The notes below the pieces were generated by a model. It was not told where the DNA came from. It made no database searches and worked only from the letters and a program-made list of their open reading frames with translations. This document shows, piece by piece, positions 5,724 to 62,129 of a stretch of 64,000 nucleotides of DNA (position 1 is the stretch's first letter; each line of letters opens with the position of its first letter). Made by a program: the position numbers and the translations under genes. The stretch lies in the NCBI RefSeq assembly GCF_056746865.1, contig NZ_CM163382.1; one strand, 5' to 3'.

Positions 5724-5805
5724 GACTGATGCCAAACGCAAAATTGCCTGTTGCGCTACGTATCAGGCCAACATACTTTTTAATTCATTGAATTTAATTG
5801 GTTTT

Positions 5806-23641: not shown

Positions 23642-23779
23642 ATATTCCTTGTAAAAACAGGGATAAACCGAACTAGTTAAAGTTTTTATTATGTTCCCTG
23701 CATCAGCGGGGATAAACCGGACTTGTTATCATTTTTTAAGTTGTCGAACTTATGTTCCCCGCGTCAGCGGGGATAACCA
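23642..23779 (+). CRISPR. degenerate CRISPR remnant: three decayed repeats (..cagggataaaccg; atgttccctgcatcagcggggataaaccg; atgttccccgcgtcagcggggataa-cca)
   Basis: partial matches to the 29-bp repeat at ~23642-23670, 23691-23719, 23752-23779; one 32-bp spacer between the last two. Confidence 0.6.
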
Positions 23780-39620: not shown

Positions 39621-39637
39621 ATATTGCCGGATAAATT

Positions 39638-39677
39638 AAACGCCTCTGTCAGAAATGATGGGGGCGTTTTTATTTTG
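39638..39677 (+). terminator. probable cysH terminator (aaacgcc ... ggcgttt + TTTTATTTT)
   Basis: 7-bp stem with long loop then T-run, 18 bp after cysH stop. Confidence 0.45.
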
Positions 39678-39884
39678 CGAGCAGCATTCCTGATTTTAAA
39701 CGTGAACGCCGCTGGAAGAATTATCAGGTATAGAATGGCGTTGGGTGCTTGAGGCTGTCTGGCGTTAAGCATTCGCGAGGTTCCAGATGGACAAAAGCCC
39801 CAGGCGATATTTCTATCAACCTGAGGCCAGCGTTCGAACCTAAGCAATTCGAATGTTAGTCTCTTCTTTGCAGGGAGGCAAGAC

Positions 39885-40037
39885 ATGCTGACAAAATATG
39901 CCCTTGTGGCAATCATCGTACTGTGTTGTACAGTACTGGGATTCACGCTGATGGTAGGCGACTCGTTGTGTGAGTTGAGTATCAGAGAACGTGGTATGGA
40001 GTTTAAGGCAGTTCTCGCTTACGAATCGAAGAAGTAG
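39885..40037 (+). CDS. Hok/Gef-family type I toxin (HokE-like), 50 aa
   Basis: ATG at 39885 preceded by AGGGAGG Shine-Dalgarno; [50 protein letters not shown] has the single TM helix and the Hok signature ...SLCE...E..AVLAYES.K; not listed in the ORF track because it is under the length cutoff. Confidence 0.75.
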
Positions 40038-40048
40038 CCACCACGCGG

Positions 40049-40058
40049 GGGTAAAACC
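40049..40058. repeat. left target-site duplication of IS186 (GGGTAAAACC)
   Basis: identical 10-bp sequence flanks both IS186 ends; an 11th base is ambiguous. Confidence 0.75.
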
Positions 40059-41397
40059 CATAAGCGCTAACTTAAGGGTTGTGGTATTACGCCTGATATG
40101 ATTTAACGTGCCGATGAATTACTCTCACGATAACTGGTCAGCAATTCTGGCCCATATTGGTAAGCCCGAAGAACTGGATACTTCGGCACGTAATGCCGGG
40201 GCTCTAACCCGCCGCCGCGAAATTCGTGATGCTGCAACTCTGCTACGTCTGGGGCTGGCTTACGGCCCCGGGGGGATGTCATTACGTGAAGTCACTGCAT
40301 GGGCTCAGCTCCATGACGTTGCAACATTATCTGACGTGGCTCTCCTGAAGCGGCTGCGGAATGCCGCCGACTGGTTTGGCATACTTGCCGCACAAACACT
40401 TGCTGTACGCGCCGCAGTTACGGGTTGTACAAGCGGAAAGAGATTGCGTCTTGTCGATGGAACAGCAATCAGTGCGCCCGGGGGCGGCAGCGCTGAATGG
40501 CGACTACATATGGGATATGATCCTCATACCTGTCAGTTCACTGATTTTGAGCTAACCGACAGCAGAGACGCTGAACGGCTGGACCGATTTGCGCAAACGG
40601 CAGACGAGATACGCATTGCTGACCGGGGATTCGGTTCGCGTCCCGAATGTATCCGCTCACTTGCTTTTGGAGAAGCTGATTATATCGTCCGGGTTCACTG
40701 GCGAGGATTGCGCTGGTTAACTGCAGAAGGAATGCGCTTTGACATGATGGGTTTTCTGCGCGGGCTGGATTGCGGTAAGAACGGTGAAACCACTGTAATG
40801 ATAGGCAATTCAGGTAATAAAAAAGCCGGAGCTCCTTTTCCGGCACGTCTCATTGCCGTATCACTTCCTCCCGAAAAAGCATTAATCAGTAAAACCCGAC
40901 TGCTCAGCGAGAATCGTCGAAAAGGACGAGTAGTTCAGGCGGAAACGCTGGAAGCAGCGGGCCATGTGCTATTGCTAACATCATTACCGGAAGATGAATA
41001 TTCAGCAGAGCAAGTGGCTGATTGTTACCGTCTGCGATGGCAAATTGAACTGGCTTTTAAGCGGCTCAAAAGTTTGCTGCACCTGGATGCTTTGCGTGCA
41101 AAGGAACCTGAACTCGCGAAAGCGTGGATATTTGCTAATCTACTCGCCGCATTTTTAATTGACGACATAATCCAGCCATCGCTGGATTTCCCCCCCAGAA
41201 GTGCCGGATCCGAAAAGAAGAACTAACTCGTTGTGGAGAATAACAAAAATGGTCATCTGGAGCTTACAGGTGGCCATTCGTGGGACAGTATCCCTGACAG
41301 CCTACAAAACGCAATTGAAGAACGCGAGGCATCGTCTTAACGAGGCACCGAGGCGTCGCATTCTTCAGATGGTTCAACCCTTAAGTTAGCGCTTATG
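40059..41397 (+). mobile_element. IS186 (IS4 family), ~1.34 kb
   Basis: 23-bp terminal inverted repeats CATAAGCGCTAACTTAAGGGTTG / CAACCCTTAAGTTAGCGCTTATG; transposase matches recalled IS186 InsL; inserted in a G-run/C-run palindrome. Confidence 0.9.
40114..41226 (+). CDS. IS186 transposase
   Basis: ORF 40108..41226 begins at a GTG; preferred ATG at 40114 (MNYSHDNWSAILAHIGKPEEL...). Confidence 0.85.
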   Translation: MNYSHDNWSAILAHIGKPEELDTSARNAGALTRRREIRDAATLLRLGLAYGPGGMSLREVTAWAQLHDVATLSDVALLKRLRNAADWFGILAAQTLAVRAAVTGCTSGKRLRLVDGTAISAPGGGSAEWRLHMGYDPHTCQFTDFELTDSRDAERLDRFAQTADEIRIADRGFGSRPECIRSLAFGEADYIVRVHWRGLRWLTAEGMRFDMMGFLRGLDCGKNGETTVMIGNSGNKKAGAPFPARLIAVSLPPEKALISKTRLLSENRRKGRVVQAETLEAAGHVLLLTSLPEDEYSAEQVADCYRLRWQIELAFKRLKSLLHLDALRAKEPELAKAWIFANLLAAFLIDDIIQPSLDFPPRSAGSEKKN

Positions 41398-41407
41398 GGG
41401 TAAAACC
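41398..41407. repeat. right target-site duplication of IS186 (GGGTAAAACC)
   Basis: read directly after the right inverted repeat. Confidence 0.75.
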
Positions 41408-41580
41408 CCGCGTATTGAATTGTGATGGTTTGGTCTCCTGCACCCTTTTTTAATTTATATTGTTTATGTGAATATTATGCCTATGTTTATTATTCATATA
41501 TATTACTGATGAAAATTATTTGATTATTCATAATGTAAATATTTTATTGGACGATATATATCACAGATAATTTTTAATAT

Positions 41581-44280
41581 ATGCGTAAATATCCTTTAAG
41601 TTTACTGAAGGATAAAAATATTGTGACTTTTTTTGATTTCTGGGGAAAAACCCGACGCGGCGAGAAAGACGGGGGCGACGACTATCACCTTCTTTGCTGG
41701 CATTCGCTGGATGTAGCCGCGATGGGCTATTTAATGGTTAAAAGCAATTGCTTCGGACTGGCTGACTATTTTCGTCAATTAGAGATTTCTGACAAGGAAC
41801 AGGCGGCTCAATTTTTCGCCTGGTTGTTGTGCTGGCACGATACTGGTAAATTTGCCCGCTCATTTCAGCAACTTTACCTGCACCCGAAACTCAGGGTTCC
41901 GGAAGGTGCTAGAAAAAATTACGAAAAAATCTCTCATTCAACGCTGGGCTACTGGTTGTGGCATCATTATTTAAGTGAATGTCAGGAGTTACTTCCTTCC
42001 TCTTCACTCTCTCCCCGCAAACTTACACGTGTAATAGCGATGTGGATGCCCATAACTACCGGGCATCATGGTCGCCCGCCTGACCGTATTGATGAACTGG
42101 ATAATTTTCTGCCTGAAGACAAAGCTGCCGCGCGAGATTTTCTTCTTGAAATCAAACCACTGTTTCCGCTCATAGAGATCCCCGCATTCTGGGATGATGA
42201 TGAGGGCATTGAACTTATAAAACACCTTTCCTGGTATATCTCTGCAACCGTCGTACTCGCAGACTGGACGGGATCGTCAGCGCGGTTTTTTCCACGCGTT
42301 GCACAGGCAATGGATATTAAAGATTACTGGCAGAAGGCTTTAGTTCAGGCTCAAAACGCCTTAACCGTCTTTCCTCCAAAAGCACAAACCGCGCCTTTCA
42401 CCGGAATTAATACGCTGTTTCCTTTTATTGAGAATCCGACACCGTTACAGCAAAAGGTGCTGGATCTGGATATCAGCCAGCCAGGGCCACAGTTATTTAT
42501 TCTGGAAGATGTGACTGGCGCAGGTAAAACGGAAGCGGCGCTTATCCTGGCGCACAGGTTGATGGCTGCGGGTAAAGCGCAGGGTTTGTTTTTTGGCCTG
42601 CCAACAATGGCAACGGCCAATGCCATGTACGATCGACTGGTCAAAACCTGGCTTGCTTTCTATTCGCCAGAGTCCCGCCCCAGCCTGGTGCTGGCACACA
42701 GTGCCCGAACATTAATGGACCGCTTTAATGAATCACTCTGGTCCGGTGATTTAGTCGGGTCAGAAGAACCGGATGAACAAACGTTCAGTCAGGGATGTGC
42801 GGCCTGGTTTGCCGACAGTAACAAGAAGGCGCTACTGGCTGAAATTGGCGTCGGCACGCTGGATCAGGCGATGATGGCTGTGATGCCGTTCAAACATAAT
42901 AATCTGCGGCTTCTGGGACTGAGTAACAAAATCCTGCTGGCTGATGAGATCCATGCCTGTGACGCTTACATGTCATGCATTCTTGAAGGGCTGATCGAGC
43001 GGCAGGCGCGTGGCGGAAACAGCGTCATTTTGCTTTCTGCCACGTTATCTCAACAGCAGTGCGACAAACTCGTTGCTGCCTTTGCGCGTGGTACAGAGGG
43101 CCAGCAAGAAGCTCCGTTCCTGGAAAAGGATGATTACCCCTGGCTGACGCACGTTACGAAATCCGATGTGCATTCACACCGGGTAGCGACGCGCAAAGAC
43201 GTTGAGCGTAGCGTGAGCGTGGGTTGGCTTCATAGCGAACAAGAATGTATTGCGCGTATCGAATCGGCAGTAAGTCAGGGGAAATGCATCGCCTGGATCC
43301 GGAATTCTGTCGATGACGCTATTAAGGTTTATCGTCAGTTGCTTGCCCGCGGCGTCATTCCTGCTTCCAGCCTTTCTCTGTTTCATAGCCGCTTTGCTTT
43401 TAGCGATCGCCAGCGAATTGAAACGGAAACGCTGGCACGCTTCGGTAAAGAAGATAGCTCACAGCGTGCCGGAAAAGTCCTCATTTGTACTCAGGTCTTA
43501 GAGTCGAGCGTTGATTGCGATATGGACGAAATGATTTCCGACCTGGCCCCTGTTGATTTGCTGATCCAGCGAGCGGGGCGATTACAGCGGCATATCCGCG
43601 ATATTAATGGTCAGTTAAAGCGTGACGGAAAAGACGAGCGTTCCCCTCCTGAATTGCTGATTCTGGCCCCCGTCTGGGACGACGCTCCAGGTGACGAATG
43701 GTTCGGCAGTGCCATGCGTAACAGTGCATATGTCTATCCCGATCATGGACGAATCTGGCTGACGCAGCGTGTACTGCGTGAGCAAGGCGCTATTCAAATG
43801 CCACACGCAGCCCGCCTTCTTATTGAATCAGTCTACGGTGAGGACGTGGTAATGCCGGAAGGATTTGCCCGCAGCGAGCAGGAGCAAGTGGGCAAATATT
43901 ACTGCGATCGCGCAATGGCTAAAAAGTTTGTGCTGAACTTCAGGCCTGGCTATGCCGCCAATATCAACGATTACCTTCCGGAAAAGCTGTCGACACGTCT
44001 GGCGGAGGAGTCTGTTTCCCTGTGGCTGGCTACCTGTATTGCCAGTGTGGTGAAGCCTTATGCCAACGGTGCTCACGCATGGGAAATGAGCGTTGTCAGA
44101 GTGCGTCGAAGCTGGTGGAAAAAACATCGGGATGAGTTTTCTTTACTGGAAGGGGAAGCGTTCAGGCAGTGGTGCATTGAACAGCGGAAAGATCCGGAGA
44201 TGGCAAACGTGATTTTAGTTACCGATGACGAAAGTTGCGGGTATTCGGCTATGGAAGGATTGACTGGCAAGGTTGGTTGA
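41581..44280 (+). CDS. cas3: CRISPR-associated nuclease/helicase Cas3 (type I-E)
   Basis: 899-aa ORF; N-terminal HD-type histidines (HSLDVA, WHDTGK, TGHHGRP); helicase Walker A (GAGKTEA) and DExH-like box (LADEIHACD); AT-rich upstream region. Confidence 0.9.
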   Translation: MRKYPLSLLKDKNIVTFFDFWGKTRRGEKDGGDDYHLLCWHSLDVAAMGYLMVKSNCFGLADYFRQLEISDKEQAAQFFAWLLCWHDTGKFARSFQQLYLHPKLRVPEGARKNYEKISHSTLGYWLWHHYLSECQELLPSSSLSPRKLTRVIAMWMPITTGHHGRPPDRIDELDNFLPEDKAAARDFLLEIKPLFPLIEIPAFWDDDEGIELIKHLSWYISATVVLADWTGSSARFFPRVAQAMDIKDYWQKALVQAQNALTVFPPKAQTAPFTGINTLFPFIENPTPLQQKVLDLDISQPGPQLFILEDVTGAGKTEAALILAHRLMAAGKAQGLFFGLPTMATANAMYDRLVKTWLAFYSPESRPSLVLAHSARTLMDRFNESLWSGDLVGSEEPDEQTFSQGCAAWFADSNKKALLAEIGVGTLDQAMMAVMPFKHNNLRLLGLSNKILLADEIHACDAYMSCILEGLIERQARGGNSVILLSATLSQQQCDKLVAAFARGTEGQQEAPFLEKDDYPWLTHVTKSDVHSHRVATRKDVERSVSVGWLHSEQECIARIESAVSQGKCIAWIRNSVDDAIKVYRQLLARGVIPASSLSLFHSRFAFSDRQRIETETLARFGKEDSSQRAGKVLICTQVLESSVDCDMDEMISDLAPVDLLIQRAGRLQRHIRDINGQLKRDGKDERSPPELLILAPVWDDAPGDEWFGSAMRNSAYVYPDHGRIWLTQRVLREQGAIQMPHAARLLIESVYGEDVVMPEGFARSEQEQVGKYYCDRAMAKKFVLNFRPGYAANINDYLPEKLSTRLAEESVSLWLATCIASVVKPYANGAHAWEMSVVRVRRSWWKKHRDEFSLLEGEAFRQWCIEQRKDPEMANVILVTDDESCGYSAMEGLTGKVG

Positions 44281-47553: not shown

Positions 47554-47630
47554 ATGAGCCAATATTTGATTTTTCAGCTTCATGGGCCAATGGCATCCTG
47601 GGGCGTCGATGCCCCGGCGAAGGGAACAAT
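47554..47630 (+). pseudogene. cas5e: cas5e (casD) 5' fragment: only about 24 N-terminal codons retained; breakpoint approximate
   Basis: MSQYLIFQLHGPMASWGVDAPAKG parallels the Cas5e N-terminus (MRSYLILRLAGPMQAWG...); the frame then runs into unrelated low-complexity sequence and stops at 107 aa; no cas6e/cas1/cas2 follow. Confidence 0.7.
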
Positions 47631-48113: not shown

Positions 48114-48270
48114 TGCGGGTTATGCGGGTTACCGGGTTATCTTAGTATGCTAACTATTTTTTGTTCTTTAGTATCAATATGTTGCAAAATACACTGTTCA
48201 TTATTCAAGCATCACATAACCCGCAAAACATCCCAAATAACCCGCAAACGCCCCAAAATAACCCGCAAAC
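48114..48270. repeat. iteron cluster A: GCGGGTTA(T/C) direct copies (48114-48140) and three inverted copies phased at 21 bp (48216, 48237, 48258), next to an AT-rich TATATATATA tract
   Basis: read directly: cagtgcgggttatgcgggttaccgggttat ... cataacccgcaaaacatcccaaataacccgcaaacgccccaaaataacccgcaaac. Confidence 0.65.
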
Positions 48271-48878
48271 ACATTGCTGAAAGCAGGGGTTGATAGTTCC
48301 ACTGGTGCCACAGAACGGCTGAATACGGTAACTGTTGCTGGTGGTCTGTCCTGTTGTCGTTCCAGTCTCATCAAATTGAGAGGCAAGACAAAGTGCATTT
48401 TTGCACTATAGCCAAAGCCTCATAAAACAGAGTTACCCCCACAGGCTGGCAAACCATTACCCAACGCAATTAAGTGCGTCAGAATCGATTACAGCGCGTT
48501 CCTGTGGCACGTTGTTGCCGTTCTCAGCAGTGAAAGGAGAGAGTGAAAAGCGCATATCTATTACTGTTGAGGGGTGTAGCGGCATATATCGCGAATATCC
48601 ACGCCCTTAATCCCGATACCGTCACGGCGCATTGAGATCCACCAGAAGATTAAGATAGTTTTTACCTGAAATTATCCAAATAATTGTTTTAACTGATTAA
48701 TTTTTCGAATATCTATTGTTAGGGAATAAATCATCAGATACACCATAAAACGACATCTTTCAGGGTGTAGAAGATGCAAAGCCGGTACTGAAGAAAAGAC
48801 AAAGAATATGAATGGCTGGCCACACGATGGAAGGATTGTCCATTGAAGGATAAATCCCCGTGGTACAAGTTTTGGTAA

Positions 48879-49162: not shown

Positions 49163-50014
49163 TCACTGTGCAGTTTTCGCTGATCGATTTTCAGCTCTAA
49201 ATTCAAGAACCGTTTCAATATTTCTTTCCTTCAGCATATCAATAACATTTTTATTCATTTGACTATCACTGGTTAATAACTGGTAAACGTTGCTTCTCTC
49301 TTTATCAGAATTTTCTTTAACAGCTGCTTTGCATGCCAAATGCTTATTGAAATTTTCTACATCGCTAGTACAGGAATTTACGGCTGCTGATGAAATATCA
49401 GACGCTGAAGAAACACCATCATCCAAACGTTTTATAGCATTTTCTATACATGAGTTAAGGGAATAAACGACAACTGAGCGATACCCTTCAGACGCACACC
49501 ATTCTAAATTTCTTGAAGGATCGAGTGGTTTTACTTCGCTGGATTGAATTAACTTGTCAAAAACTGACTTATATTCAATCTGTTTTTTATCTATAGCCCA
49601 TACTTCAGTAGCTGATTTATAATTCCCCGTATGCCTATTAACATCAAATCCATGTTTTATAAGCAAATCTGCCCATGAAAGATTTATTGATTCATTGTTA
49701 TGAGGCCATTTTCCTGTCAGAACCGCCCCCATAGACCCCATATATCCGCCATATGATGGTATAGCACCATGGCTCAGTAACTTCTCAGCAACCACAGGGC
49801 AATTAATTACATAAGAGGCGTAAAGCCCATTCCATAAAGCCCCTCTATAGTAATCGCCACGATTAGGTTCTTTTAAGTCGATAGCCTTTGATAATTGTTC
49901 ACACGTTTTGCATGCATCAAAGTTATCCTTATTGCATTGCAATGAACTGGCGGCTGTAGGATTTACAGAGACTATTGAAAGCACTATGCCAAAAAACAAA
50001 TTTATTTTTTTCAT
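49163..50014 (-). CDS. secreted Cys-rich protein of unknown function (283 aa), last gene of cargo operon
   Basis: N-terminal signal peptide (MKKINLFFGIVLSIVSVNPTAA); 8 Cys; strongly AT-rich codon usage; ATG one base after upstream stop (TAGGATG). Confidence 0.7.
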   Translation of the reverse strand: MKKINLFFGIVLSIVSVNPTAASSLQCNKDNFDACKTCEQLSKAIDLKEPNRGDYYRGALWNGLYASYVINCPVVAEKLLSHGAIPSYGGYMGSMGAVLTGKWPHNNESINLSWADLLIKHGFDVNRHTGNYKSATEVWAIDKKQIEYKSVFDKLIQSSEVKPLDPSRNLEWCASEGYRSVVVYSLNSCIENAIKRLDDGVSSASDISSAAVNSCTSDVENFNKHLACKAAVKENSDKERSNVYQLLTSDSQMNKNVIDMLKERNIETVLEFRAENRSAKTAQ

Positions 50015-50015
50015 C

Positions 50016-53000
50016 CTATTTCATCTGCTCTTCAACTTTATTTAGTAATGGTGATATCGCCCACAGATTCTGAAAAGGTAGCATTTTACGGACAGCGTGG
50101 GTTTGCTGGCTGTCAAATTCTCCGTTAAGTACACCATTTGCAACCGTCGCGGCATCACCGCCAAGATCAAAGGTAGGACCAAGTAAAGCACCAATAGCAT
50201 TACGACTCTGAAACCTTGATACCGGAGGCGCACCAAACATCGCGCCAAGACCAAACCTACCGCCGCTTATGTTCTCAACGGTATTCAGCGGCTCAGAGAG
50301 CCAGCCAAGCATTCCGCCCCGGTCGATCCCCTCTTTCACAAGGTTATTCCAGCTGTAGTCGATATCGCGACCGCTTAACTTCTGTTTCATCATATAGACC
50401 ATTGAGCCAAGCGCAATCGTGCCAAGCGCACCAAGATAGAATGAAGCATCGCCCTGCTGGATACCAGATACCAACACCCTGTTATGCTGTGCGAAGATAA
50501 ACGTTTTGAACTGCGTGATCATCTTCCAGCCTTCTTTACTAAAAAACAGCGGTGTATCACCTACGCCAGGCGTTACAATCACTGAGTCTACATCTTTCAG
50601 CACTGCAGACTGGAAAATCTCTCTAGCGAAACGGTCATCCCACAGATGACTATGCCCGGTTAACAGCCCGTCCATATCCTCTCCGTGCTTCCCGAATTGC
50701 TCCCCGATTCGGCGCAGAACATCTTCATTGATGCCGACCTGTGCCATCTTCCGCATTTCACTTTTGGCGAGCGTGCCACCAGCAGAAACCTGGCGAGCCG
50801 CGTCAAGTATCCTCGACTGCACTATCATCCCGGACCATGATTTAAGTGCGCTGTTCCACTGATTCATCAGCGTCCAGTTACCGAATTTCTGCGTCATCCA
50901 GTTCAGGCCTCGCTCAGCGGCGCTTCTCCGGCTATAGGGGTCAGTAAGATCCGCTATAGCCTTTGTACGCGTAGACAGGACATAATCAAGCCCAACGGCC
51001 ATTTCTCGCAAATCCCTGGTTGCAATTTTCACTGAGTCCATATTTTTAAGCATGCTTACCATTGGTCCGAGAGATTTTCTCAGGCCATGCTGCATCATCG
51101 GTCGCATCAGATCAGTTGCAGCGGAGACGGTCATTCCACCAAGCAAACGGAGGAAGTTAATATTCCTAGCAACTCGCCCGGCACGAACAAAGAAACTGCG
51201 TGGATCTTGAGGTGCGCCGTAAGTACCAAGCAGTCGGTCACGCATAGCCGTAATATCCCTAATATCAGCCTCCCGTTGCTTCTCAAGAGCTGCACGTCGT
51301 TTAGGTGTTTTAGCCTCTTTTATTAGCCGGGTATATTCCTCACTAACCTGACGGATTTGCTCCCCCATATCTTTACGGCCAAACTGCGCAGTCAGCTCAA
51401 TTTCTGGTGCCACCTGCCGGAGATAACTTTCCATGATGTAGTTAACATCTGATTCAAGAAAATCTTCTATACGCTCATCAGGAATAAGCAGCGTTCGGCT
51501 TTTAGTGAAACCAGCCCGACCAACGAGTCTCTCTGGGATAATATCGGCTGGTACAAGCCCGGAAGGTGCGCCTATTATTTTATTCACGATCTCGTCAGCA
51601 GCGTCCTCTGCTTCCTCTCGGGATAGAGGCTCCATCTGCTTCAGTGCTCGCTCGCGGCTTGCATTCAGCCTTGTGGTTGAATTTGCCCGTTTTTGCAGTC
51701 GGCGAAGCTCAGAACGATATTTCCGTGGATTATCCAGCAACTCCATATGGCGCTGATAGACAGGAAGCTCACTCTTTGCCTGCGCTATATCATCAAGGCG
51801 TGTTTTAAGGTCAGAGCTTTCTTTCATCATTCTTGCCTGAAGTTTTTCTGATGAAGTCTCGGCCAACTCTTTTTCTATTCTTGTAAGACGCGCCTGTGTG
51901 TCAGTCTCCTGAGATATAAGCTTATTTCGTTTATCCAGTTCTTCCATGAGTAGAATTTTTTTACCAGACCATTTCTCCGCTTCAGCGATTTCACTAGCGA
52001 GAGCATCAGCGCGCGGTGCCGATTCCTCTGCAGTTTTTAGCAATGAATTTATCCTTTCAATTCGCTGACCTGCTTTGTCAGCACCTTTGGCACTAATCCC
52101 TTGTATCCAGTTGGCAATTCGCCCTCTGAATTCAGTGCGGTCGGAAAGTATCTTATCGAACTTATAAATGCGGGGAAGATAACTTTTCGCCGTCACGACA
52201 TCGATATCCTCAGGAAGGATCCCCAGTTCCTGCATACGGGCTTTTGTGGTCTCGAAAATGGGGCGGATTCTGGCGGCTGCTTGTGAAACCTCAGGAATAT
52301 CACTCTGATCACCACGGCGCATAGCCATGCCAACAGCTTCATTGAAATCAATAAAGCTCATCCTCTTCACGCCGCGGGCGCTGACAGATTTGCTGTACTG
52401 CTGGTAAGCATCACGAGTGGCTTCCATCTGCTTATAAAGCATGGCGTCGTATTGCTTAATCTTAGTCTCGACTGCCGTAAACGTAGCCAACCCCTCATCA
52501 TTTTTGGCGAAGAAATAGTTATTTTCGGCAAGCTGCTGGTTAATCTGACGGGAGACAAGAGATGGTGATTGCGCCAAGCGGCCAGCAGGAGTGACACTCA
52601 ACGTTTTGTTAGCAAGTCCAAGTCCAGCGAGCTGTTCCTGATCGAGTGTGGTATTGAAAACCTGAGCTGCACCAATGCTTTGAGGAGAATCCATACCTCG
52701 CAAATGATTACCTACTGAGTTAACCACTGCCTCGCGCGCGCTAGGTCCAGCAAGTAGCTGTGCACCAGCACCAAGGATCCCACCAACGAGAGCATCAACA
52801 ACAACGTTCGATACGCTCTCCATCGGTGAGCGAGCTTCCTGAGTGGCCTGCAATGCGGCCTCTGAAGCAACACTGCCAGCAGCATTGGCTAAAGCAAAAC
52901 GTCCGGCTGTTTCTGCAATACGACCGCCACGAACGACAGCGCCGAACGGAATAAACATAGAAATCGCATTGAATGGATCTGCTAATCTCATTGCTACAGA

Positions 53001-53405
53001 AGAGACTGTACCAGCAAATCCCAAGCCTGAATTGTATTCCATGTCAGCTCTCTGCTGATCGATTCGATGTTTAATTGCCATTGTTTCTTCAGGCGAACCG
53101 GAGTTGATAAACGAATCTGCAAAATCTTCATAGCCTTTAATATCTGCTGCATCGTTATCAAATGGGTTATATCCTTCAATCCTGTCAAACTGACTGAAAG
53201 GAGCACTGGCAATAAAGCTACCCAGCGTGTTATCTATACGAAATGCTGCTTGTCTAGACCTTTGAACGCGTTGATCACTGGTAAATGGGTTCACAGCAGA
53301 AAGCAAAGAAGGTGTTTCCATATAGAAATTACTGTCATCAGGTGCTGCTATTTGCTGAATATCCTCGCCAAGCAACTCTTTAGGATCCTGTTCATATATC
53401 GGCAT
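50016..53405 (-). CDS. large protein of unknown function (1129 aa), predicted alpha-helical with Gly-rich hydrophobic C-terminal region
   Basis: long uninterrupted ORF; start overlaps upstream stop (TAATG); Q/A/E/R-rich; C-terminal hydrophobic/glycine-rich segments (GALGTIALGSMVYMM, GGRFGLGAMFGAPP); no NTPase motifs seen. Confidence 0.8.
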   Translation of the reverse strand: MPIYEQDPKELLGEDIQQIAAPDDSNFYMETPSLLSAVNPFTSDQRVQRSRQAAFRIDNTLGSFIASAPFSQFDRIEGYNPFDNDAADIKGYEDFADSFINSGSPEETMAIKHRIDQQRADMEYNSGLGFAGTVSSVAMRLADPFNAISMFIPFGAVVRGGRIAETAGRFALANAAGSVASEAALQATQEARSPMESVSNVVVDALVGGILGAGAQLLAGPSAREAVVNSVGNHLRGMDSPQSIGAAQVFNTTLDQEQLAGLGLANKTLSVTPAGRLAQSPSLVSRQINQQLAENNYFFAKNDEGLATFTAVETKIKQYDAMLYKQMEATRDAYQQYSKSVSARGVKRMSFIDFNEAVGMAMRRGDQSDIPEVSQAAARIRPIFETTKARMQELGILPEDIDVVTAKSYLPRIYKFDKILSDRTEFRGRIANWIQGISAKGADKAGQRIERINSLLKTAEESAPRADALASEIAEAEKWSGKKILLMEELDKRNKLISQETDTQARLTRIEKELAETSSEKLQARMMKESSDLKTRLDDIAQAKSELPVYQRHMELLDNPRKYRSELRRLQKRANSTTRLNASRERALKQMEPLSREEAEDAADEIVNKIIGAPSGLVPADIIPERLVGRAGFTKSRTLLIPDERIEDFLESDVNYIMESYLRQVAPEIELTAQFGRKDMGEQIRQVSEEYTRLIKEAKTPKRRAALEKQREADIRDITAMRDRLLGTYGAPQDPRSFFVRAGRVARNINFLRLLGGMTVSAATDLMRPMMQHGLRKSLGPMVSMLKNMDSVKIATRDLREMAVGLDYVLSTRTKAIADLTDPYSRRSAAERGLNWMTQKFGNWTLMNQWNSALKSWSGMIVQSRILDAARQVSAGGTLAKSEMRKMAQVGINEDVLRRIGEQFGKHGEDMDGLLTGHSHLWDDRFAREIFQSAVLKDVDSVIVTPGVGDTPLFFSKEGWKMITQFKTFIFAQHNRVLVSGIQQGDASFYLGALGTIALGSMVYMMKQKLSGRDIDYSWNNLVKEGIDRGGMLGWLSEPLNTVENISGGRFGLGAMFGAPPVSRFQSRNAIGALLGPTFDLGGDAATVANGVLNGEFDSQQTHAVRKMLPFQNLWAISPLLNKVEEQMK

Positions 53406-56152
53406 TATTTGCCCCCTGCGTATATATTGCTCGGAAGGTAATTGGCTGAACCATAACCGAATGGTTTGGTCAGATCTGGAGGAGTATATCCATCTTTATT
53501 GCTGAACTGCGGCAGCGGATTGCCTTCTCTCCGCACTCTAGCCTCATCAACACGCTGTTGCTGGAACTGAATGGTTTGCCTGTACATTGGAGATGTCAGC
53601 TGATCCGGCTTGAAACGAACAGGGAGACCATTTTCTCCAATATAATTTCTCGGTTCTATCGCTCCGTTTGCGTCAGGCTGTAAAACCATAACAGCATAAC
53701 TCCTATCCCTTGCCGTAAGGCCATCAGAAACAAGTATTAAGTCCGTATCACTGCGAGGACCGCCAAAGGATTTTGATTTAAGCTCGCGTTTTTCCTGCTC
53801 CCACTGCCCCTGTATCCAGTTACCAGCACCATTATTTACTCCGTACAATGCCTCAGGTGCATACTTCATAACCTCTGCTTTGCCATTAACCGTAGAAACT
53901 CCCCAGGTGGTTCTGATCATGGCATTGGTCATTTTCTCAGCCTGTTCTGCATCGCCACCTGTCTGTACAAAGTTAGCATCGTAAATTGTCTGGTAATCTC
54001 GCTGATAGGCCGCATTTGATTTTCCTGGATCGGTAATATCCGGAGACCACGAACCAAAGGAAGTCAGACTGCTGGCGTTATTTTGTGCAGCAGTTACCCT
54101 CGCCGCGACATATTTTTTGTCTCGCATGGCAGTGGAAAGCATCTGTTTCATTCGGTCATCCTGTTGGAACACCTGACTGTAAGCCATATCAACAGCCTTA
54201 TCCTCCGGCACGCCAGCGCGGGAATAATCGTAAACCTTGCCATAAAATGCCATCGTACTTTTATCAAGTGTTGCCGCTGCCGCCGGATTATTATCGAATA
54301 ACTGACCGTAGAATTTTGCCATCGGGACAACCAGCGCAGGATCTCTTGATGTTGCTCCACTGTTAAGCATTGTTTTAACCTGAGTTGGTATCATGCCGCT
54401 TTTAGTTGTGACGGTGACCAGTGTATTGATGCTCTGCGGATCAGATATGGAAAACGAAGGCGCGATATCCTGCGCGAAATAACGGTCTACCGCTGCCTGA
54501 TTGTTTTTGTCGTTCGGGTCCAGCGGGAAGTTATTTTGCATTGAAGACACGAACCTGTTTCTTCCCTGCTGAATCTCCCACTCCCTATCCATCTCTTTAA
54601 ATTTGGCCTGCATTTTCTCCCAGCGTTGCTGGTTAGCAGCAAATCCAGGAGCATTTGGATCCTGTGGACGTAAACGTTCAAGAATGTCTTGTCGTCCTTC
54701 TGGAGTGAGGTCTTTAGCGGCACCAATGACACCTCCATATTGTATCTGCGCCTGCATATCCTTCCACTTCATAGCGCCAATGCGCGGACCATTGGCCCGG
54801 ATAAAATCGTCCTCAGAAGGTAACTTCTCAGGTTTCAATCCTTCATCAAGGGCTGAATATGCATCTTTAACTACGGTGCTAAGCTGGTCCGCATACTGCT
54901 GGCGGTACTGATTTCTCAGCTCATTAGCCTGCCTCAATGCCTGTATTTGCATTTGAGGGCTCATAGCATCAAATGCCGCATTGCCCGTATAACGCTTAGG
55001 TGAATCAAGGTTAGTTAGACCAAGGGCTGCCGAGATACCAGTTTCAAGCTGTTCGGTGCTATAAGGCATACTGCCATTTTCGTGTTTAATAATCCCAGCA
55101 CATAAAGCAGCTAGTGTCTTTGGGTTAGAGATATCAAGCTGATCATTCTCCCCAACACCAAGCTCACCACACAATGCCCTAATATAAGCATCAGTATTAT
55201 TACCATCACTAGCCGGAGCATAGCGATTAACAATCTCGCTAACGGTGTCATAGCCTTGACGCTGGTAAGACAACATATTTTTACCCAACGCGCGGATTCC
55301 ATGCTCAGGGGTAGCAAACGTTGCAAAACGTCCATCGCTACCGATCTGACCTTCCCACGGGTTAGATTTGCTCGCTTCAATATTACCAGGGTTATTATTA
55401 CGTAAACCACGAGCATCCAATGAATTACCATGTGATATTGCACGACTCACACCATCAAGATCCCCTGGCTCTCCATTAACCTGAAGAAACTCGTTGTATT
55501 TTTGAGCGATATTTCCTATCCATGCTTGCTGCCCCATTTGTTCCTTGAGCTGAGTTTTCTGCTGAACACGCCACTCATCAGGAAGCCCATGCGCATCAGC
55601 GTATTGATCAATAGATTCAAATCGCTGCTTGGCTAAATCGACAAATGCTTGGTTATAGCTATATAGCCCCGCAGACTGAGTGACAGCCAATGCATTTCCT
55701 GACAAATACGTTTGATCTTGGAATTGCTGAAACTGCCCAACTTCATATCGACGTGCCTGATTGTAATAAGACTGCATAGACTGCTGGAGTTGAAAGGATA
55801 ATTTATTCCTTTCCTCACTTTCAGGGATTGAGCCTAATAATGCCTGAGCCCTTTCCTGCATATTTTTCATAACAGCGTCACTCTGACCAAGAGCGTTTTT
55901 ACCCTGTTTAGAAATCAGCCCATTTTCAGGGTTGTTAATCTGGTCATCTGCAAATTGGTTAAATTGCAGTAACGCCTCCTGGGCCATAGCAACATTCGCT
56001 TTCTGCCTGGCTTCACCATATGCCACCGCATACTGATCTGCGACATTCGCCAGCACCTGACCTGCTTGAGGAACATCGAAGGTCTGAAAACCACCGGTTT
56101 GCACACCACGACTTTGCACCTGGCGTCCGGATGTAGTAGGAACAACAAGCAT
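53405..56152 (-). CDS. large protein of unknown function (915 aa), Q/N/A-rich
   Basis: ATG at 56152 preceded by TAGGAGGT Shine-Dalgarno; contains conserved-looking block RGLRNNNPGNIEASKSNPWEGQ...; no NTPase motifs seen. Confidence 0.8.
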   Translation of the reverse strand: MLVVPTTSGRQVQSRGVQTGGFQTFDVPQAGQVLANVADQYAVAYGEARQKANVAMAQEALLQFNQFADDQINNPENGLISKQGKNALGQSDAVMKNMQERAQALLGSIPESEERNKLSFQLQQSMQSYYNQARRYEVGQFQQFQDQTYLSGNALAVTQSAGLYSYNQAFVDLAKQRFESIDQYADAHGLPDEWRVQQKTQLKEQMGQQAWIGNIAQKYNEFLQVNGEPGDLDGVSRAISHGNSLDARGLRNNNPGNIEASKSNPWEGQIGSDGRFATFATPEHGIRALGKNMLSYQRQGYDTVSEIVNRYAPASDGNNTDAYIRALCGELGVGENDQLDISNPKTLAALCAGIIKHENGSMPYSTEQLETGISAALGLTNLDSPKRYTGNAAFDAMSPQMQIQALRQANELRNQYRQQYADQLSTVVKDAYSALDEGLKPEKLPSEDDFIRANGPRIGAMKWKDMQAQIQYGGVIGAAKDLTPEGRQDILERLRPQDPNAPGFAANQQRWEKMQAKFKEMDREWEIQQGRNRFVSSMQNNFPLDPNDKNNQAAVDRYFAQDIAPSFSISDPQSINTLVTVTTKSGMIPTQVKTMLNSGATSRDPALVVPMAKFYGQLFDNNPAAAATLDKSTMAFYGKVYDYSRAGVPEDKAVDMAYSQVFQQDDRMKQMLSTAMRDKKYVAARVTAAQNNASSLTSFGSWSPDITDPGKSNAAYQRDYQTIYDANFVQTGGDAEQAEKMTNAMIRTTWGVSTVNGKAEVMKYAPEALYGVNNGAGNWIQGQWEQEKRELKSKSFGGPRSDTDLILVSDGLTARDRSYAVMVLQPDANGAIEPRNYIGENGLPVRFKPDQLTSPMYRQTIQFQQQRVDEARVRREGNPLPQFSNKDGYTPPDLTKPFGYGSANYLPSNIYAGGK

Positions 56153-56785: not shown

Positions 56786-57994
56786 TCAGGCTGTCGCCTG
56801 AATCATTTCGGTGGGTTCCTGCTTCAACGGGCGGCCTGACTGCACCATCCCTCCACAGGCAAGAACGGCGTGCCCCGCCGCTAAAATGTTACGAGCGCCG
56901 TTTACATCGGCGTTCGCTGTATATCCACATACCTGGCATCTGAATTGACTTTGTGACAGGCGATTTTCTTTCGCTGTATGACCACAGCACGCGCAACGCT
57001 GGCTTGTGTACGCTGGCGGAACAGCAAGCACCTGACCGCCACACCAGAGCTGCTTGTACTCAAGCTGACGGCGCATTTCATACCAGCCCTGATCCAGTAT
57101 CGAACGGTTTAAACCTGATTTTGCCCGGACATTGCGCCCCGGCTGGCTGACCGTACCCGAGGCTGACTTTGACATGTTGCTGACCTTCAAATCCTCAATG
57201 ACTATCATTGCGTGGTTTTTGCTGATGGTCGTTGTGACTTTGTGAAGGTAGTCCCTGCGGATATTTGCGATACGGGAATGCAGTCGCTGTATTTTGCGTT
57301 TCTGCTTCTGCCAGTTGTTGCTGAATTTAACCTTGCGGCTTAACTGGCGCTGAAGTCTCGCCAGCTTCTTCTGGTTTTTATGAAAACTGTTTACAGGCTC
57401 AAAGACCGTGCCATCTGACAGCGTGGCGAGTTTAGCCACGCCAGCATCCAGCCCGACCATTAATGCTGAAGGGTGAACCGGAGTTGATACTTCACTTTCT
57501 GTCTGAATACTGATGTACCACTTACCGCAGGACTGGCTGACAGTGACATTTTTCACAACACCCGTGACCTGACGGCTGTTCCGGTAGCGCATCCAGCCCA
57601 GTTTCGGCAGAAAAATACGGCTGTTTTCCTGATCGAGCTTAACACCCTGCGGATAGCGGAATGCATCATGCTGTCCCCGCTTTTTGAATCGGGGAAAAGC
57701 GGCACGCTTCTGAAAGAAATTTTTGTAGGCTCGCTCAAGGTCTTTCAGTGACTGCTGCAATGGCTGTGAGGGAGAATCTTTAAGCCATTGCGTTTCAGTA
57801 GCATTTTTCCATTCAACCAGCCAGGAAGTCATCTTTGCATAAGAAATATATTTGTTCCCGGCCTCATGATTCTCATTCTGAAGCGCCAGAGCACGATTGA
57901 AAACGAAACGACATGCGCCCGCGAAGCGCCTCATTTCACGCTCCTGTTTTCCATTTGGTCTTAACTGGAATTTGAAAGCTTGTAGTCGTTTCAT
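56786..57994 (-). CDS. tnpB: TnpB (OrfB), RuvC-like RNA-guided nuclease of IS200/IS605 elements
   Basis: 402-aa ORF; C-terminal zinc-finger cysteines (CACCGH...CQVCGY) and RuvC-like blocks. Confidence 0.85.
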
Positions 57995-59001: not shown

Positions 59002-59129
59002 TTTTGCGGGTTACAATCGCACATTTGCGGGTTATAACTGCCGTTTTGCGGGTTACGTGCGGGTTATTAATTTCCTTTTTAATCATTCAGTTAATTAACT
59101 TATGCACAGGATAACCCGCATAACCCGCA
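59002..59129. repeat. iteron cluster B: four direct copies of TTTGCGGGTTA(C/T) plus two inverted copies (ATAACCCGCA), immediately 3' of the primase-helicase gene
   Basis: read directly: ttttgcgggttac ... tttgcgggttat ... tttgcgggttac gtgcgggttat ... ataacccgcataacccgca. Confidence 0.7.
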
Positions 59130-59152: not shown

Positions 59153-61279
59153 TTAATCTTCTGCTTCAGGCTGGAACATCAGCACGTAAAAAATATGTTG
59201 CTTCCCGCCAATCCTGCCGAGCGCCTTTTTCTTGTAACGGCGGTCGCCTCCCGCTTCCAGCATTCCGGCTGCACTCAACGCGCGGGCAAAGTGAGACGGA
59301 TTAAATCCCTGTGCTATCTCACCCTCAAACACATGCGGGAACGTGTAAAAACGGAACTCGTCATCTTCGTTTCTGATACTCCCCTTTCTGTATCCGGCAA
59401 GGTCTTTAATCGGTAAATCACGCTCGTCGCTGTTTGGATAGGGAAGGTATCGACTGAACCCGAACGACGACAAAAACGCCTCAGCCTGTTCAACCATCTG
59501 TTTAAACTCCCTGTTCCCCGTGCCGAACTCCTTCACCCAGGCATTAAAATTATGCTGAATGGCATCGCGGCATTCCTGCTCATCCCAGCCAGTAACATGA
59601 CCGGAAAGTACAAGCGCGGCCTCCAGTATGGCGAATCGTTCCCCCACACGGTGAACCTGTTCGCCGTAGCTCTCCGGTATCAGGTTGCGCCACCGCTCGC
59701 GACATGCCCTTACCGCGTCCTTTGCCTCCTGCTGGTGTTCTGCCAGCCATTTAACCCACTCACGACCTGCCGCCCCGTGATTTTCTGTCCAGGCATCTTT
59801 TAACGCGTCTGCGTGCGCCTTTCCGGTGCTGTATTCGTGAAACTGCGAGGCCTTTTCCATCGGCACGTTAAGCAGACGGACAAGCTGCCCCGCTTTAATT
59901 TTTATCCCTTCCGTTTTGAGGAATGTTTCAACGTCCATTTCTCCGGTGCTGATTGCCACCGTGCGCCAGTGTTTTATCTCCCTGTTGCCGCCGTCCTTCG
60001 CCCCCTGTAATTTCCCCGAACCGTTAAACAGCGTATAGGCTGACGTGGACACCTCCCGCGCGTTTCCGGCCTGGCCTATTTCATCCAGGGGTAACAGCCC
60101 GTCATTATGTGCTTCGGCCTCGTTGGCGATACCTAACGCCGTTCCGTACCAGGTCAGCCGTTGCGCGTCCGGCTCTCCCCATAAACTTGATGCAATGTTC
60201 TGTGTGGTGGTTTTACCTGCTGATGATTGCTCAAAAAGATGAACCCCGAAGCCGTCAGCACCCACCAGCCCGATTAATGGTGCAGATAGCGATACCGCCA
60301 CACCCAGCATCATGGACGGATTACCACCAGCCAGCCGTGCCACGGTATCGCGCCAGCCCTCCGCTGTTCCCGCCACGGAATAGCCATTAACAGCGGCAGT
60401 TTTTCCGGTAAACAGGATGGGTTTCTCTGATTCACCGATGATCGAACCATCCGGCATGATGTACGCACCAAAATGCCACCCCGTTGTTGTGCTTAACTGC
60501 CATTCCTCATGGTTTCCGCTTAACTGCATCCAGTCAGCCAGGATAGCCCTGTATTTGCCGTTGGTCGTCACGTTAAGGCCGTGGTCTTTCAGCAACCGCC
60601 AGCCGTCACGGTCACCAATGCCTCCGCACGGGACCGCCATTGTAATGACCTCATGGTTTGCTGGTTTTTTCCAGCGCATCACGCGGTAATGCTCTTTGCC
60701 GATTGTTCCTGTTCCCAGTAGTTCAAGCGGAGAACATAACCACGTCTCAGGCCGGATAATTTCGCCTGACTGCTTGTCCACTTTGGGCGTTACCCAGAAA
60801 ACACCATCGACGCGACTTTCAACACGAGGCTTTAATTCGTCATCATAATTTCCGGTGAAATTTGTCTTCGCCGGAAGGTTGATCACCAGACTGTTACCGC
60901 GTTCCGCATCATACTTCAGTCCAGCCATGCGCGGAGTCCAGTCCTCCGGCTGCTGATCAACAAAGCTGCGGTAGCAACGCGCCTCCTTCACACCCGCCAC
61001 TGCAAGCAGTGTCGCTATCTGTGTAAGGTGCTGCTCTGATATTTCACCAGCACGATAAATGCGCACGTAATAGCGTCCTTTGTCGATGATTTGCGTGTCT
61101 GCCAGACTCGCCAGTTGTTCCGGTCCAAGAATAACTGGATGTGTATCATCTGCCGCAATATGCTTTCCGGCCCATTCGCTCCACTCTTTCGCATGTGCCC
61201 AGGCATCACTACCCGCAAAGATAATCACCTCCGTCATTTTGTCTTTCGGCTGGTGCTTTAAATTCGGTGCGCGTTTCAT
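59153..61279 (-). CDS. replication primase-helicase (P4 alpha-like)
   Basis: 708-aa ORF; helicase Walker A-like (SSAGKTT) and Walker B-like (LLPLDEI) blocks; adjacent iterons; typical of satellite/island replication modules. Confidence 0.8.
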   Translation of the reverse strand: MKRAPNLKHQPKDKMTEVIIFAGSDAWAHAKEWSEWAGKHIAADDTHPVILGPEQLASLADTQIIDKGRYYVRIYRAGEISEQHLTQIATLLAVAGVKEARCYRSFVDQQPEDWTPRMAGLKYDAERGNSLVINLPAKTNFTGNYDDELKPRVESRVDGVFWVTPKVDKQSGEIIRPETWLCSPLELLGTGTIGKEHYRVMRWKKPANHEVITMAVPCGGIGDRDGWRLLKDHGLNVTTNGKYRAILADWMQLSGNHEEWQLSTTTGWHFGAYIMPDGSIIGESEKPILFTGKTAAVNGYSVAGTAEGWRDTVARLAGGNPSMMLGVAVSLSAPLIGLVGADGFGVHLFEQSSAGKTTTQNIASSLWGEPDAQRLTWYGTALGIANEAEAHNDGLLPLDEIGQAGNAREVSTSAYTLFNGSGKLQGAKDGGNREIKHWRTVAISTGEMDVETFLKTEGIKIKAGQLVRLLNVPMEKASQFHEYSTGKAHADALKDAWTENHGAAGREWVKWLAEHQQEAKDAVRACRERWRNLIPESYGEQVHRVGERFAILEAALVLSGHVTGWDEQECRDAIQHNFNAWVKEFGTGNREFKQMVEQAEAFLSSFGFSRYLPYPNSDERDLPIKDLAGYRKGSIRNEDDEFRFYTFPHVFEGEIAQGFNPSHFARALSAAGMLEAGGDRRYKKKALGRIGGKQHIFYVLMFQPEAED

Positions 61280-62034: not shown

Positions 62035-62129
62035 AGCTACCTCGATACTCTCGTTATCGTTGGTGGTTAGAAGCCCTGCGAGTGGTAACGACACTTGCGG
62101 GGCTTTGTTTTTTGTTGCACTTACTGTTA

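Follow-up and report, generated by a model that had tools for sequence, protein, structure and literature searches.

An IS186 insertion downstream of the intact hokX toxin gene separates it from predicted mRNA 3′ control elements in Escherichia coli

What does an insertion sequence do to a toxin gene when it lands just beyond an intact reading frame? The cysH–cas3 intergenic region of a 64,000-nucleotide stretch of DNA (contig NZ_CM163382.1 of RefSeq assembly GCF_056746865.1; hereafter the window) poses this question. The region is the E. coli chromosomal type I toxin–antitoxin locus hokX/sokX; in most E. coli this locus has cysH on one side and the type I-E cas operon on the other. The toxin gene, hokX (39885..40037, + strand), encodes 50 amino acids with the same sequence as RefSeq WP_000956458.1; the open reading frame (ORF) is annotated in thousands of genomes, and RefSeq labels it as a Hok/Gef family protein adjoining an IS186/IS421 transposase. 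An initial annotation had likened this ORF to HokE and noted a strong Shine–Dalgarno sequence, and both points held. It matches Pfam HOK_GEF (PF01848) over model positions 1–42 of 42 (E = 6.3e-10), HokX shares 39/50 residues (78%) with K-12 HokE and 16–24 with HokA, HokB, HokC and R1 Hok, and GGAGG at 39874–78 lies 6 nt upstream of the ATG. The hokX locus and an insertion of this kind are already in the literature, including a published description of an IS-bearing hokX in E. coli B, such that the observation is correct but not new. Searches of the large downstream ORFs against NCBIfam, PADLOC and Pfam returned nothing informative.

The inserted element is IS186 (40059..41397, + strand, the same direction as hok and cas3; 1339 bp). 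It has the features of this IS4-family element: a length of ~1.34 kb, perfect 23-bp terminal inverted repeats (CATAAGCGCTAACTTAAGGGTTG; IRL 40059–81 and IRR 41375–97), with only two matches in the 64 kb against 0.01 expected, and a single transposase ORF (40114–41226), intact and encoding 370 amino acids identical to WP_001300563.1. A single nucleotide in 1339 separates this copy from K-12 IS186A. As the initial annotation had described, 21 nt lie between the end of the hok stop codon (40037) and the start of the element (40059), and a 10-bp direct repeat, GGGTAAAACC, flanks it at 40049–58 and 41398–407. Removal of IS186 in silico yields ACGCGGGG-GTAAAA-CCCCGCGT, a sequence present exactly in IS-free strains. 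This reconstructed empty site, ACGCGGGGGTAAAACCCCGCGT, has an 8-bp stem and a 6-nt loop, and strain 118UI carries it with 100% identity over 640 bp, bearing out the GC hairpin proposed as the target. In the window, the left arm and loop (ACGCGGGG GTAAAA CC, including the left duplication copy) occupy 40043..40058 (+), and the right duplication copy with the right arm (CCCCGCGT, 41406–13) occupies 41398..41413 (+).

The duplication falls within GGGGG-TAAAA-CCCC. SaiSree reportedly defined the IS186 consensus target in 2001 as a G-run, a short spacer and a C-run, and the palindrome was probably struck because it fits this preference. Insertion of IS186 at a G-run/spacer/C-run target has been described for a single site in either orientation, with precise excision reported (PMC3045373, PMC3861542); that target is in a promoter, whereas the one at hokX is an RNA-structure element of a toxin mRNA. 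Origin of the hokX copy by recombination with a hokE–IS186 copy was ruled out, as both flanks are halves of the local hairpin and carry a locus-specific duplication.

Junction-specific queries detected hokX–IS186 with a cas3 flank in the orientation of the window in 169 of 5,426 complete genomes and in the inverted orientation in 326 of the 5,426, while 2240 complete genomes had an uninterrupted hok-to-cas3 interval. Empty sites, forward insertions and inverted insertions were all found on 100%-identical flanks. A count of 1381 genomes, obtained with a 2-kb query at a coverage of at least 80%, was discarded as a frequency because hokE–IS186 loci (~89% identical flank plus the IS) also pass.

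Upstream of the toxin ORF, the hok mRNA leader (39743..39900, +) matches the Rfam family 'sok' (RF01794) at 111.7 bits (gathering score 59). The mRNA 5′ end, with the tac element GGGUGCUUGAGGCU (39743..39756, +), falls at position 1 of this model and is conserved in hokB, hokC, hokE and R1. A hokX promoter −10 element, TAGAAT (39731..39736, +), aligns with those of hokB, hokC and hokE, and its −35 is weak. On the opposite strand, the 59-nt antisense RNA SokX (39787..39845, −) was placed by transferring the coordinates of K-12 sokX (b4701) by alignment; its predicted fold (−22.7 kcal/mol) comprises a 5′ single-stranded tail, a terminator hairpin and a U-run. The Sok promoter (39853..39881, −; −35 TTGCCT 39881–76, 17-nt spacer, −10 TAACAT 39858–53) occupies a position homologous to that in the paralogs and has 8/12 consensus positions, below the scan threshold. 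As neither promoter, hok or Sok, was picked up by a sigma-70 consensus scan (the sole match, at 39888, was within chance expectation), both are assigned by homology only. The Rfam match, the mapped K-12 sokX (running 39845→39787), the terminator fold and, by position, the promoter identify a cis-encoded antisense Sok overlapping the hok leader, contrary to the possibility, raised in the initial annotation, that the ORF lacked an upstream antisense sok-like promoter. From the Rfam structure line and folds, a Sok-target stem-loop (39823..39863, +) is predicted only in transcripts without the fold-back element fbi, namely the processed mRNA and every IS read-through form.

The palindrome (G5-N5-C4) begins 5 nt after the hok stop and stands at an equal distance from the stop codon in hokB, hokC, hokE and R1 hok. 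In the alignment with these paralogs and R1, a post-stop GCGGGG-N5–6-CCCCGC stem, tac, the Sok terminator region and fbi are all in register, which identifies the hairpin, as judged by alignment, as the conserved post-stop stem-loop of hok mRNAs; its R1 counterpart is nt 337–354. The palindrome had been taken for the site of the 3′ fold-back element. It corresponds instead to the stem-loop at the end of the processed mRNA; fbi (GGUCUCCUGCACCC, 41432–45, then U6 at 41446–51; 41432..41451, +), located by folds and by alignment with fbi of hokB, hokC, hokE and R1, lies 25 nt further on. Together, fbi and U6 presumably form the 3′ end of full-length hokX mRNA. The companion claim, that the insertion hits the mRNA 3′ region and not the coding sequence, stands: the stem is split, and its right arm, fbi and the U-tract are displaced by 1.35 kb and separated from hok by IS186, while the insertion leaves intact the hok coding sequence with its Shine–Dalgarno sequence and the Sok gene with its promoter.

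Folding the transcript with and without the insertion, as the initial annotation had suggested, predicted tac–fbi pairing only for the IS-free form. In its minimum-energy fold, nt 1–6 and 9–14 pair with 41440–45 and 41432–37, respectively. These predicted 12 bp of end pairing, a property of hok/sok loci, are accompanied by compensatory changes relative to R1 (GGCGCUU/AAGCGCC in R1 versus GGGUGC/GCACCC at the chromosomal loci). For the processed form and for read-through forms carrying 60–400 nt of the IS, the 5′ end is predicted to fold locally and the Sok-target hairpin to form; this local 5′ hairpin is of the metastable type, unlike the tac/ucb stem of the R1 model. The contiguous 3′ untranslated region of a terminal GC stem-loop followed by fbi is found in IS-free alleles but not here, and the locus of the window is a disrupted member of the hok/sok-type loci.

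Comparison with R1 hok/sok showed the same colinear order of tac, the ucb/GAGG hairpin, Sok with a promoter that overlaps the hok Shine–Dalgarno sequence, the terminal 3′ stem-loop and fbi, as well as the same 5′–3′ end pairing (predicted for hokX). However, the leader of hokX is shorter and lacks a canonical mok start, the locus is chromosomal, the protein is only 40% identical, and no separate terminator hairpin follows fbi, the U-run lying directly 3′ of it. K-12 hokX/sokX has the same flanking genes and a sokX (b4701) colinear with SokX, but comprises only sokX and the leader without a hok ORF, homology stopping at the hok ATG (window 39888). In E. coli B, hokX carries the IS in the opposite orientation, the cas genes are lost and Hok bears C15F.

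The homologous post-stop stem, GCGGGG-N6-CCCCGC, is where IS186 lies at K-12 hokC and hokE; the 10-bp duplications (GGAGTGATCC and GGAGTAATCC, respectively) have the loop at their centre, the same geometry as at hokX, and the coding sequences are untouched; at hokE, the paralog with 78% protein identity, the orientation of the IS is also that of the window. As the three genes have different sites and different duplicated sequences, the hokC, hokE and hokX insertions are independent. An in-frame mokC is annotated at hokC, whereas no mok is annotated for hokE or hokX. The initial annotation's statement that K-12 hok loci carry IS elements just downstream of the reading frame thus applies to hokC and hokE, with IS186 in the post-stop hairpin, but not to hokA, where IS150 lies upstream of hok. 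Pedersen and Gerdes are said to have described hokE::IS186 and hokC(gef)::IS186 of K-12 in 1999. Both insertions are cited in later papers (PMC7232551, PMC3562002).

We consider it likely that the IS186 insertion silences hokX through loss of mRNA 3′ control elements. In hok mRNAs, fbi pairs with the 5′ tac to keep the full-length form inert and stable, and the terminal stem-loop shields the 3′-processed, translatable mRNA from 3′-to-5′ exonucleases. In R1, 19 of 22 loss-of-toxicity substitutions in the 3′ untranslated region break a CG pair of the terminal stem, and the processed mRNA vanishes (PMC9841398). With IS186 transposed into this palindrome, 5 nt beyond the hok stop codon, transcription starting at the hokX promoter would run into the element; such read-through transcripts would have neither the tac–fbi lock nor a protected 3′ end, would be exposed to SokX and RNases once made, and no stable pool of toxin mRNA should accumulate. 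Without such a reservoir, hokX should no longer act as a post-segregational or stress-triggered killer. This agrees with the proposal made for K-12 hokC and hokE; the K-12 gef/hokC mRNA is reported to end inside IS186, and fbi and processing are thought to be disrupted (PMC3562002). Because a stem of the palindrome type is kept in all hok paralogs, the insertion would be expected to recur, as seen at hokC, hokE, hokX and plasmid hok genes in either orientation, and the double role of the stem, indispensable to active toxin mRNA and at the same time ideal as an IS186 target, would account for repeated silencing of hok loci by this element. Genomes with the IS still have an intact hok ORF, as would be expected if the insertion is recent or if some function persists.

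Alternatively, the insertion may have been neutral for hok, a defective leader or mok frame having already blocked expression and the palindrome merely fitting the documented preference of IS186 for GC-rich targets (PMC3903273). Paralog alignment, from which the initial annotation had hoped to locate mok, sok and the fold-back element, recovered the latter two, but the canonical mok start of R1, mokB and mokC is absent, with TCG in place of its ATG. A candidate mokX, the leader ORF at 39787..39843 (+; Shine–Dalgarno GAGG 39777–80, ATG 39787), is cut by TAA at 39841–43. The B, WCHEC020031 and K-12 alleles have CAA here, and in B and WCHEC020031 the ORF is 34 codons long and ends at a TGA that overlaps the hok ATG. 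The TAA also occurs in the IS-free 118UI, JNE120442 and SCU125 alleles, so translation of hokX may already have been poor prior to the insertion, and a 1-nt deletion breaks the frame in O157 and Dog168; interrupted in 3 of the 4 haplotype groups sampled, the long ORF from ATG 39787 was rejected as a universal mok. R1 hok loses its toxicity when mok is stopped prematurely upstream of it (PMC9841398). However, the Hok peptide is strictly conserved, with eight synonymous changes and one nonsynonymous change across eight alleles, substitution counts that point to purifying selection, and tac, the Sok region, the 3′ stem and fbi are much less variable than the flanks (4–9 variable sites per element versus 86/129 just downstream). 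Moreover, hokX has a strong Shine–Dalgarno sequence of its own, and a 12-codon upstream ORF (39853..39891, +), whose TGA overlaps the hok start (ATGCTGA), is kept in 8/8 alleles and could supply coupling; the O157 allele has TAA for this TGA, a change synonymous in hok, and the ATG of the small ORF is the complement of the Sok −10. On balance, prior inactivity of hokX seems rather unlikely. We give practically no credence to the idea that the palindrome is a terminator of cysH, or another unrelated structure, beside a chance ORF. Its intergenic position is all that favours this, whereas cysH (stop 39620) has an intrinsic terminator of its own (39638..39678, +; a 14-bp stem in the hairpin 39638–39669 plus a T-run, by terminator scan) 375 bp upstream of the palindrome, the palindrome keeps its fixed distance from the stop among hok genes, and the ORF has its Pfam match and wide annotation. 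An Rfam hit to ctRNA_p42d at 39636–78 (24.9 bits against a gathering score of 50) is this same cysH terminator.

A further reading, which we regard as a tentative possibility, places the main biological effect on CRISPR-Cas: IS186, 183 bp upstream of cas3 (41581..44280, +; the type I-E variant found together with hok and different from that of K-12), would change how cas3 is transcribed or silenced, and recombination between homologous IS186 copies would delete cas genes. In the inference of Almendros et al. 2014, IS186 inserted at this boundary before the cas-E1 genes were lost (PMC3903273), E. coli B has IS186 between hokX and a GGGGTTTTTCCCC site beside a residual CRISPR array with no cas genes, and about half of the inverted-orientation hokX junctions are without a cas3 flank. 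In the window, however, both copies of the duplication are intact and cas3 is complete, so no IS-mediated deletion has occurred at this copy, and an effect on CRISPR-Cas is compatible with silencing of hokX. Almendros et al. describe the same order of cysH, hok sok, IS186 at the GC-rich IG2–IG3 boundary and cas-E1 genes among the arrangements that derive from their case A through IS186 insertion, but they present the IS as driving cas evolution and leave the hok mRNA 3′ elements undiscussed (PMC3903273). More speculative, and in our view improbable, is that the hok 3′ terminal stem-loop is a family-wide IS186 homing site, with insertion and precise excision acting as a reversible killing switch and the IS at hokX also seeding CRISPR-Cas gene loss.

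Silencing of hokX through its mRNA 3′ end thus remains our preferred reading. Gene callers give 'Hok/Gef family protein' and 'IS4-like transposase' at this locus and leave the lost 3′ control elements of the toxin mRNA unmarked. The IS186 copy 183 bp upstream of cas3 is of the element type implicated in cas loss in E. coli B-like strains. Beyond this, the significance of the finding is small and lies in correct annotation: the window holds a disrupted hokX/sokX module.

The interval between the cysH stop codon (39620) and the cas3 start (41581) carries hokX, a 50-codon toxin ORF at 39885-40037 on the + strand, with a GGAGG Shine-Dalgarno (SD) sequence 6 nt 5' of its ATG. The ORF matched the full Pfam HOK_GEF model (E = 6.3e-10), and its product shares 78% identity with K-12 HokE and 32-48% with HokA, HokB, HokC and the Hok of plasmid R1. 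The locus has been published as hok/sokX or hokX, and in 90% of urological isolates it lies beside cysH (PMC12736100). Almendros et al. 2014 reported that only strains with the K-12-type cas variant lack hok-sok, placed IS186 at the GC-rich IG2-IG3 boundary, and inferred that recombination between IS copies eliminated cas-E1 genes (PMC3903273). Earlier publications thus cover the locus, IS186 at this boundary, and the wider tendency of the element to sit behind hok genes; the window is one of the IS186-bearing arrangements of that study, with cas3 retained 183 bp downstream of the IS.

IS186 occupies 40059-41397 (1339 bp) and begins 21 nt past the hokX stop. Its 23-bp terminal inverted repeats are perfect and are the sole two matches in the window (0.01 expected by chance). 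This copy differs from K-12 IS186A at 1 position, and its intact transposase ORF is identical to RefSeq WP_001300563.1. The 10-bp direct repeat GGGTAAAACC lies on both sides; removal of the element and one repeat copy yields ACGCGGGG-GTAAAA-CCCCGCGT, a reconstructed empty site found exactly in strain 118UI (100% identity, 640 bp). Overall, the hok-to-cas3 interval is uninterrupted in 2240 of 5426 complete genomes. The initial annotation was right in every detail of the toxin ORF, SD, insertion point, duplication and palindrome.

To place the palindrome, we aligned hokX with K-12 hokE and hokC (all three with the IS removed), hokB and a plasmid hok/sok locus encoding R1 Hok. A GC-rich stem-loop lies a few nucleotides 3' of the stop codon in all five loci, with the common form GCGGGG-N5-6-CCCCGC in the four chromosomal ones. 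A terminator belonging to cysH, the alternative raised for the palindrome in the initial annotation, was rejected, as cysH has a separate terminator at 39638-39678 (14-bp hairpin with T-run). In R1, the 3'-processed mRNA, the translatable form, has the homologous stem at its terminus. Le Rhun et al. 2022 found that, of 22 3'-UTR substitutions causing loss of toxicity, 19 disrupt a CG pair in it (for example, G345A and C358A); the processed mRNA is lost in such mutants, which they attributed to 3'-to-5' exonucleases (PMC9841398). The aligned hairpin is nt 337-354 of the plasmid variant used here, whose numbering is ~4 nt off that of R1.

The fold-back element (fbi), which pairs with the mRNA 5'-end element tac, could be aligned in the same register across hokB, hokC, hokE and R1; the initial annotation had proposed a comparison with other E. 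coli hok loci. The fbi of R1 (CUGAAGCGCC) and of hokB, hokC and hokE (GGCACC/GCACCC) aligned with CUGCACCC at 41438-41445, directly 5' of a U6 run (41446-41451). Folded to minimum energy (-128.9 kcal/mol), the reconstructed IS-free transcript, from 39743 to the U-run, pairs its 5' nt 1-6 with 41440-41445 and nt 9-14 with 41432-41437. The tac-fbi pairing covaries, being GGCGCUU/AAGCGCC in R1 versus GGGUGC/GCACCC in chromosomal loci. Because the alignment and the end-pairing fold place fbi at 41432-41445, its predicted position is downstream of IS186, 25 nt past the palindrome. The insertion does hit the mRNA 3' region, as first proposed, but the palindrome is the terminal stem and not the fold-back region itself. 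IS186 splits this protective stem, and also shifts fbi and the transcript end 1.35 kb from the hok coding sequence.

We compared folds of the processed form (ending past the intact stem) and of IS-occupied transcripts with 60, 150, 250 and 400 nt of IS. All shared an identical 5' architecture not seen in the full-length IS-free fold: the Sok-target stem-loop (39823-39863) formed, and tac paired locally with nt 19-32. The resulting 5' hairpin is closer to the metastable structure of the R1 model than to its tac/ucb stem, and GAGG at 39813-39816 remained paired. Folding with and without the insertion, a check suggested at the outset, thus gave IS-occupied forms that lose 5'-3' end-pairing, and supports the prediction that IS-bearing hokX mRNA cannot take the end-paired inert state; the folds bear on that state and not on translatability.

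Rfam RF01794 ('sok') matched 39743-39900 at 111.7 bits (gathering score 59); on the window strand, this match is the hok mRNA leader. K-12 MG1655 has an annotated small RNA, sokX (b4701), between cas3 and cysH, and, mapped onto the window, this RNA runs 39845->39787 (- strand), with a predicted fold of a 5' tail followed by a terminator hairpin with U-run. The possibility, raised earlier, that hokX lacks an upstream sok-like element is countered by the Rfam match and the K-12 mapping. A putative Sok promoter (39881-39853, - strand; TTGCCT, 17-nt spacer, TAACAT) matches 8 of 12 consensus positions and overlaps the hok SD, as at other hok loci; a putative hok -10, TAGAAT, lies at 39731-39736 (+). 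A simple promoter scan called neither, and both assignments follow from positional homology with hokB, hokC, hokE and R1. Colinearity between K-12 and the window extends from cysH to the hok ATG (~39888), past which K-12 has its own cas3 upstream region; it therefore retains only sokX and the leader. Comparison of K-12 record positions 3221-3578 with 39621-39888 puts the K-12-type cas module boundary exactly at the hok start codon, leaving a remnant of hokX promoter, leader and sokX without toxin ORF.

The leader leaves room for a hokX haplotype that was already poorly expressible before IS186 arrived. The canonical start codon of mok (R1 mok, mokB, mokC) aligns with TCG in hokX. A leader ORF from ATG 39787, a start common to hokE (SD GAGG, 39777-39780), is 34 codons long in the B and WCHEC020031 alleles, where its TGA overlaps the hok ATG, but is interrupted in other alleles, IS-free ones included: codon 39841-39843 is TAA in the window and in IS-free 118UI, JNE120442 and SCU125, versus CAA in E. 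coli B, WCHEC020031 and K-12, the last of which lacks the hok ORF. A 1-nt deletion cuts it in O157 and Dog168. The TAA/CAA polymorphism sits in the Sok-target hairpin loop, and may reflect loss of mok-type coupling in particular alleles or co-variation between Sok and its target. A 12-codon uORF (39853-39891, ending ATGCTGA) is kept in all alleles, with TGA changed to TAA in O157, synonymous in hok; its conservation is ambiguous, since the complement of its ATG belongs to the Sok -10. Against prior decay, eight hokX alleles (94-100% DNA identity) carry 8 synonymous and 1 nonsynonymous change in the Hok coding sequence, the latter C15F in E. coli B, and the leader, coding sequence and 3' UTR are much less variable than the neighbouring cas3 upstream region (86 of 129 sites variable). 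With so few nonsynonymous changes and such low variability relative to that region, the sequences argue for purifying selection on hokX. The interpretation first offered is supported overall, refined as to the stem's identity, the fbi position and the name hokX/sokX, with mok questionable.

K-12 hokC and hokE also carry IS186 in the homologous stem, with loop-centred 10-bp duplications (GGAGTGATCC and GGAGTAATCC, respectively); the orientation at hokE is that of the window, and at hokC the opposite. K-12 hokA differs, having IS150 upstream, in mokA, so that the initial statement that K-12 hok loci are hit downstream of the ORF holds for hokC and hokE but not for hokA. Junction-specific searches of the 5426 genomes found IS186 at hokX with the cas3 flank in window orientation in 169 and inverted in 326, and the inverted hok-side junction with unrestricted right flank in ~600. 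A count of 1381 genomes was discarded as inflated by hokE-IS186 loci. The empty site (118UI), forward IS (window) and inverted IS (Ecol_545) have 100% identical flanks and identical junctions; the hokX site has therefore taken up IS186 repeatedly, or has lost and regained it. Insertion in either orientation and precise excision have been reported for IS186 at the lon hot spot (PMC3045373, PMC3861542). Hairpins of the hok type behind the stop codon are likewise joined to IS186 at hokE and hokC of other strains, where both orientations turned up, and in a plasmid-borne hok (NZ_CP189960.1).

The ~600 genomes with the inverted hok-side junction include E. coli B-type ones, which have lost the cas genes and in which the far IS end abuts GGGGTTTTTCCCC by a residual CRISPR array, fitting cas loss by recombination between two IS186 copies. 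In the E. coli B95 delta A record (4448-5810), the hokX-adjacent IS186 has the orientation opposite to that in the window, its far end meets GGGGTTTTTCCCC next to a short CRISPR array and iap, and every cas gene is missing. The window itself has the second E. coli array, distant from the cas genes (21276-21851; type I-E, 10 repeats GTTCCCCGCGCCAGCGGGGATAAACCG, 61-bp period), and a single degenerate repeat 1.8 kb beyond (23693-23719). Its type I-E cas operon ends within cas5 (47554-47625), and the window holds no cas6e, cas1, cas2, cas-side CRISPR array or iap. Homology of cas7-cas5 to other strains stops at ~47622, just past a GGGGCGTCGATGCCCC motif (47600-47615); the DNA beyond adjoins yqeG, ~100 kb away, in FDAARGOS_1298. 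This fits an inversion breakpoint, a junction shared by 0 of 5426 complete genomes. Between it and genes for TnpB (56786-57994), a helicase-like ORF (59153-61279) and an Icd-like protein (61831-63078) lie three consecutive - strand ORFs (283, 1129 and 915 aa; 49163-56152) that NCBIfam and PADLOC left unmatched and for which Pfam gave only a marginal hit (DUF919, 5e-5), suggesting a P4-like satellite or island. The corresponding site of FDAARGOS_1298 holds other large hypothetical genes, as would suit a variable cargo/defence hotspot. Two sets of 21-bp tandem units, ATAACCCGCAAACACCCCAAA (48216-48272) and TTTGCGGGTTACAACCGCACA (59003-59056), partially matching, inverted and ~10.8 kb apart, bracket the unmatched ORFs and TnpB and may be mobile-element ends.

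The K-12 gef/hokC mRNA is reported to end ~200 nt into IS186, where fbi and processing are thought to be disrupted while regulation by Sof persists (PMC3562002). By this analogy and the predicted folds, a stable reservoir of toxin mRNA would not build up from IS-bearing hokX, its transcript would be quickly cleared by SokX and RNases, and the locus would be silent as a killer.
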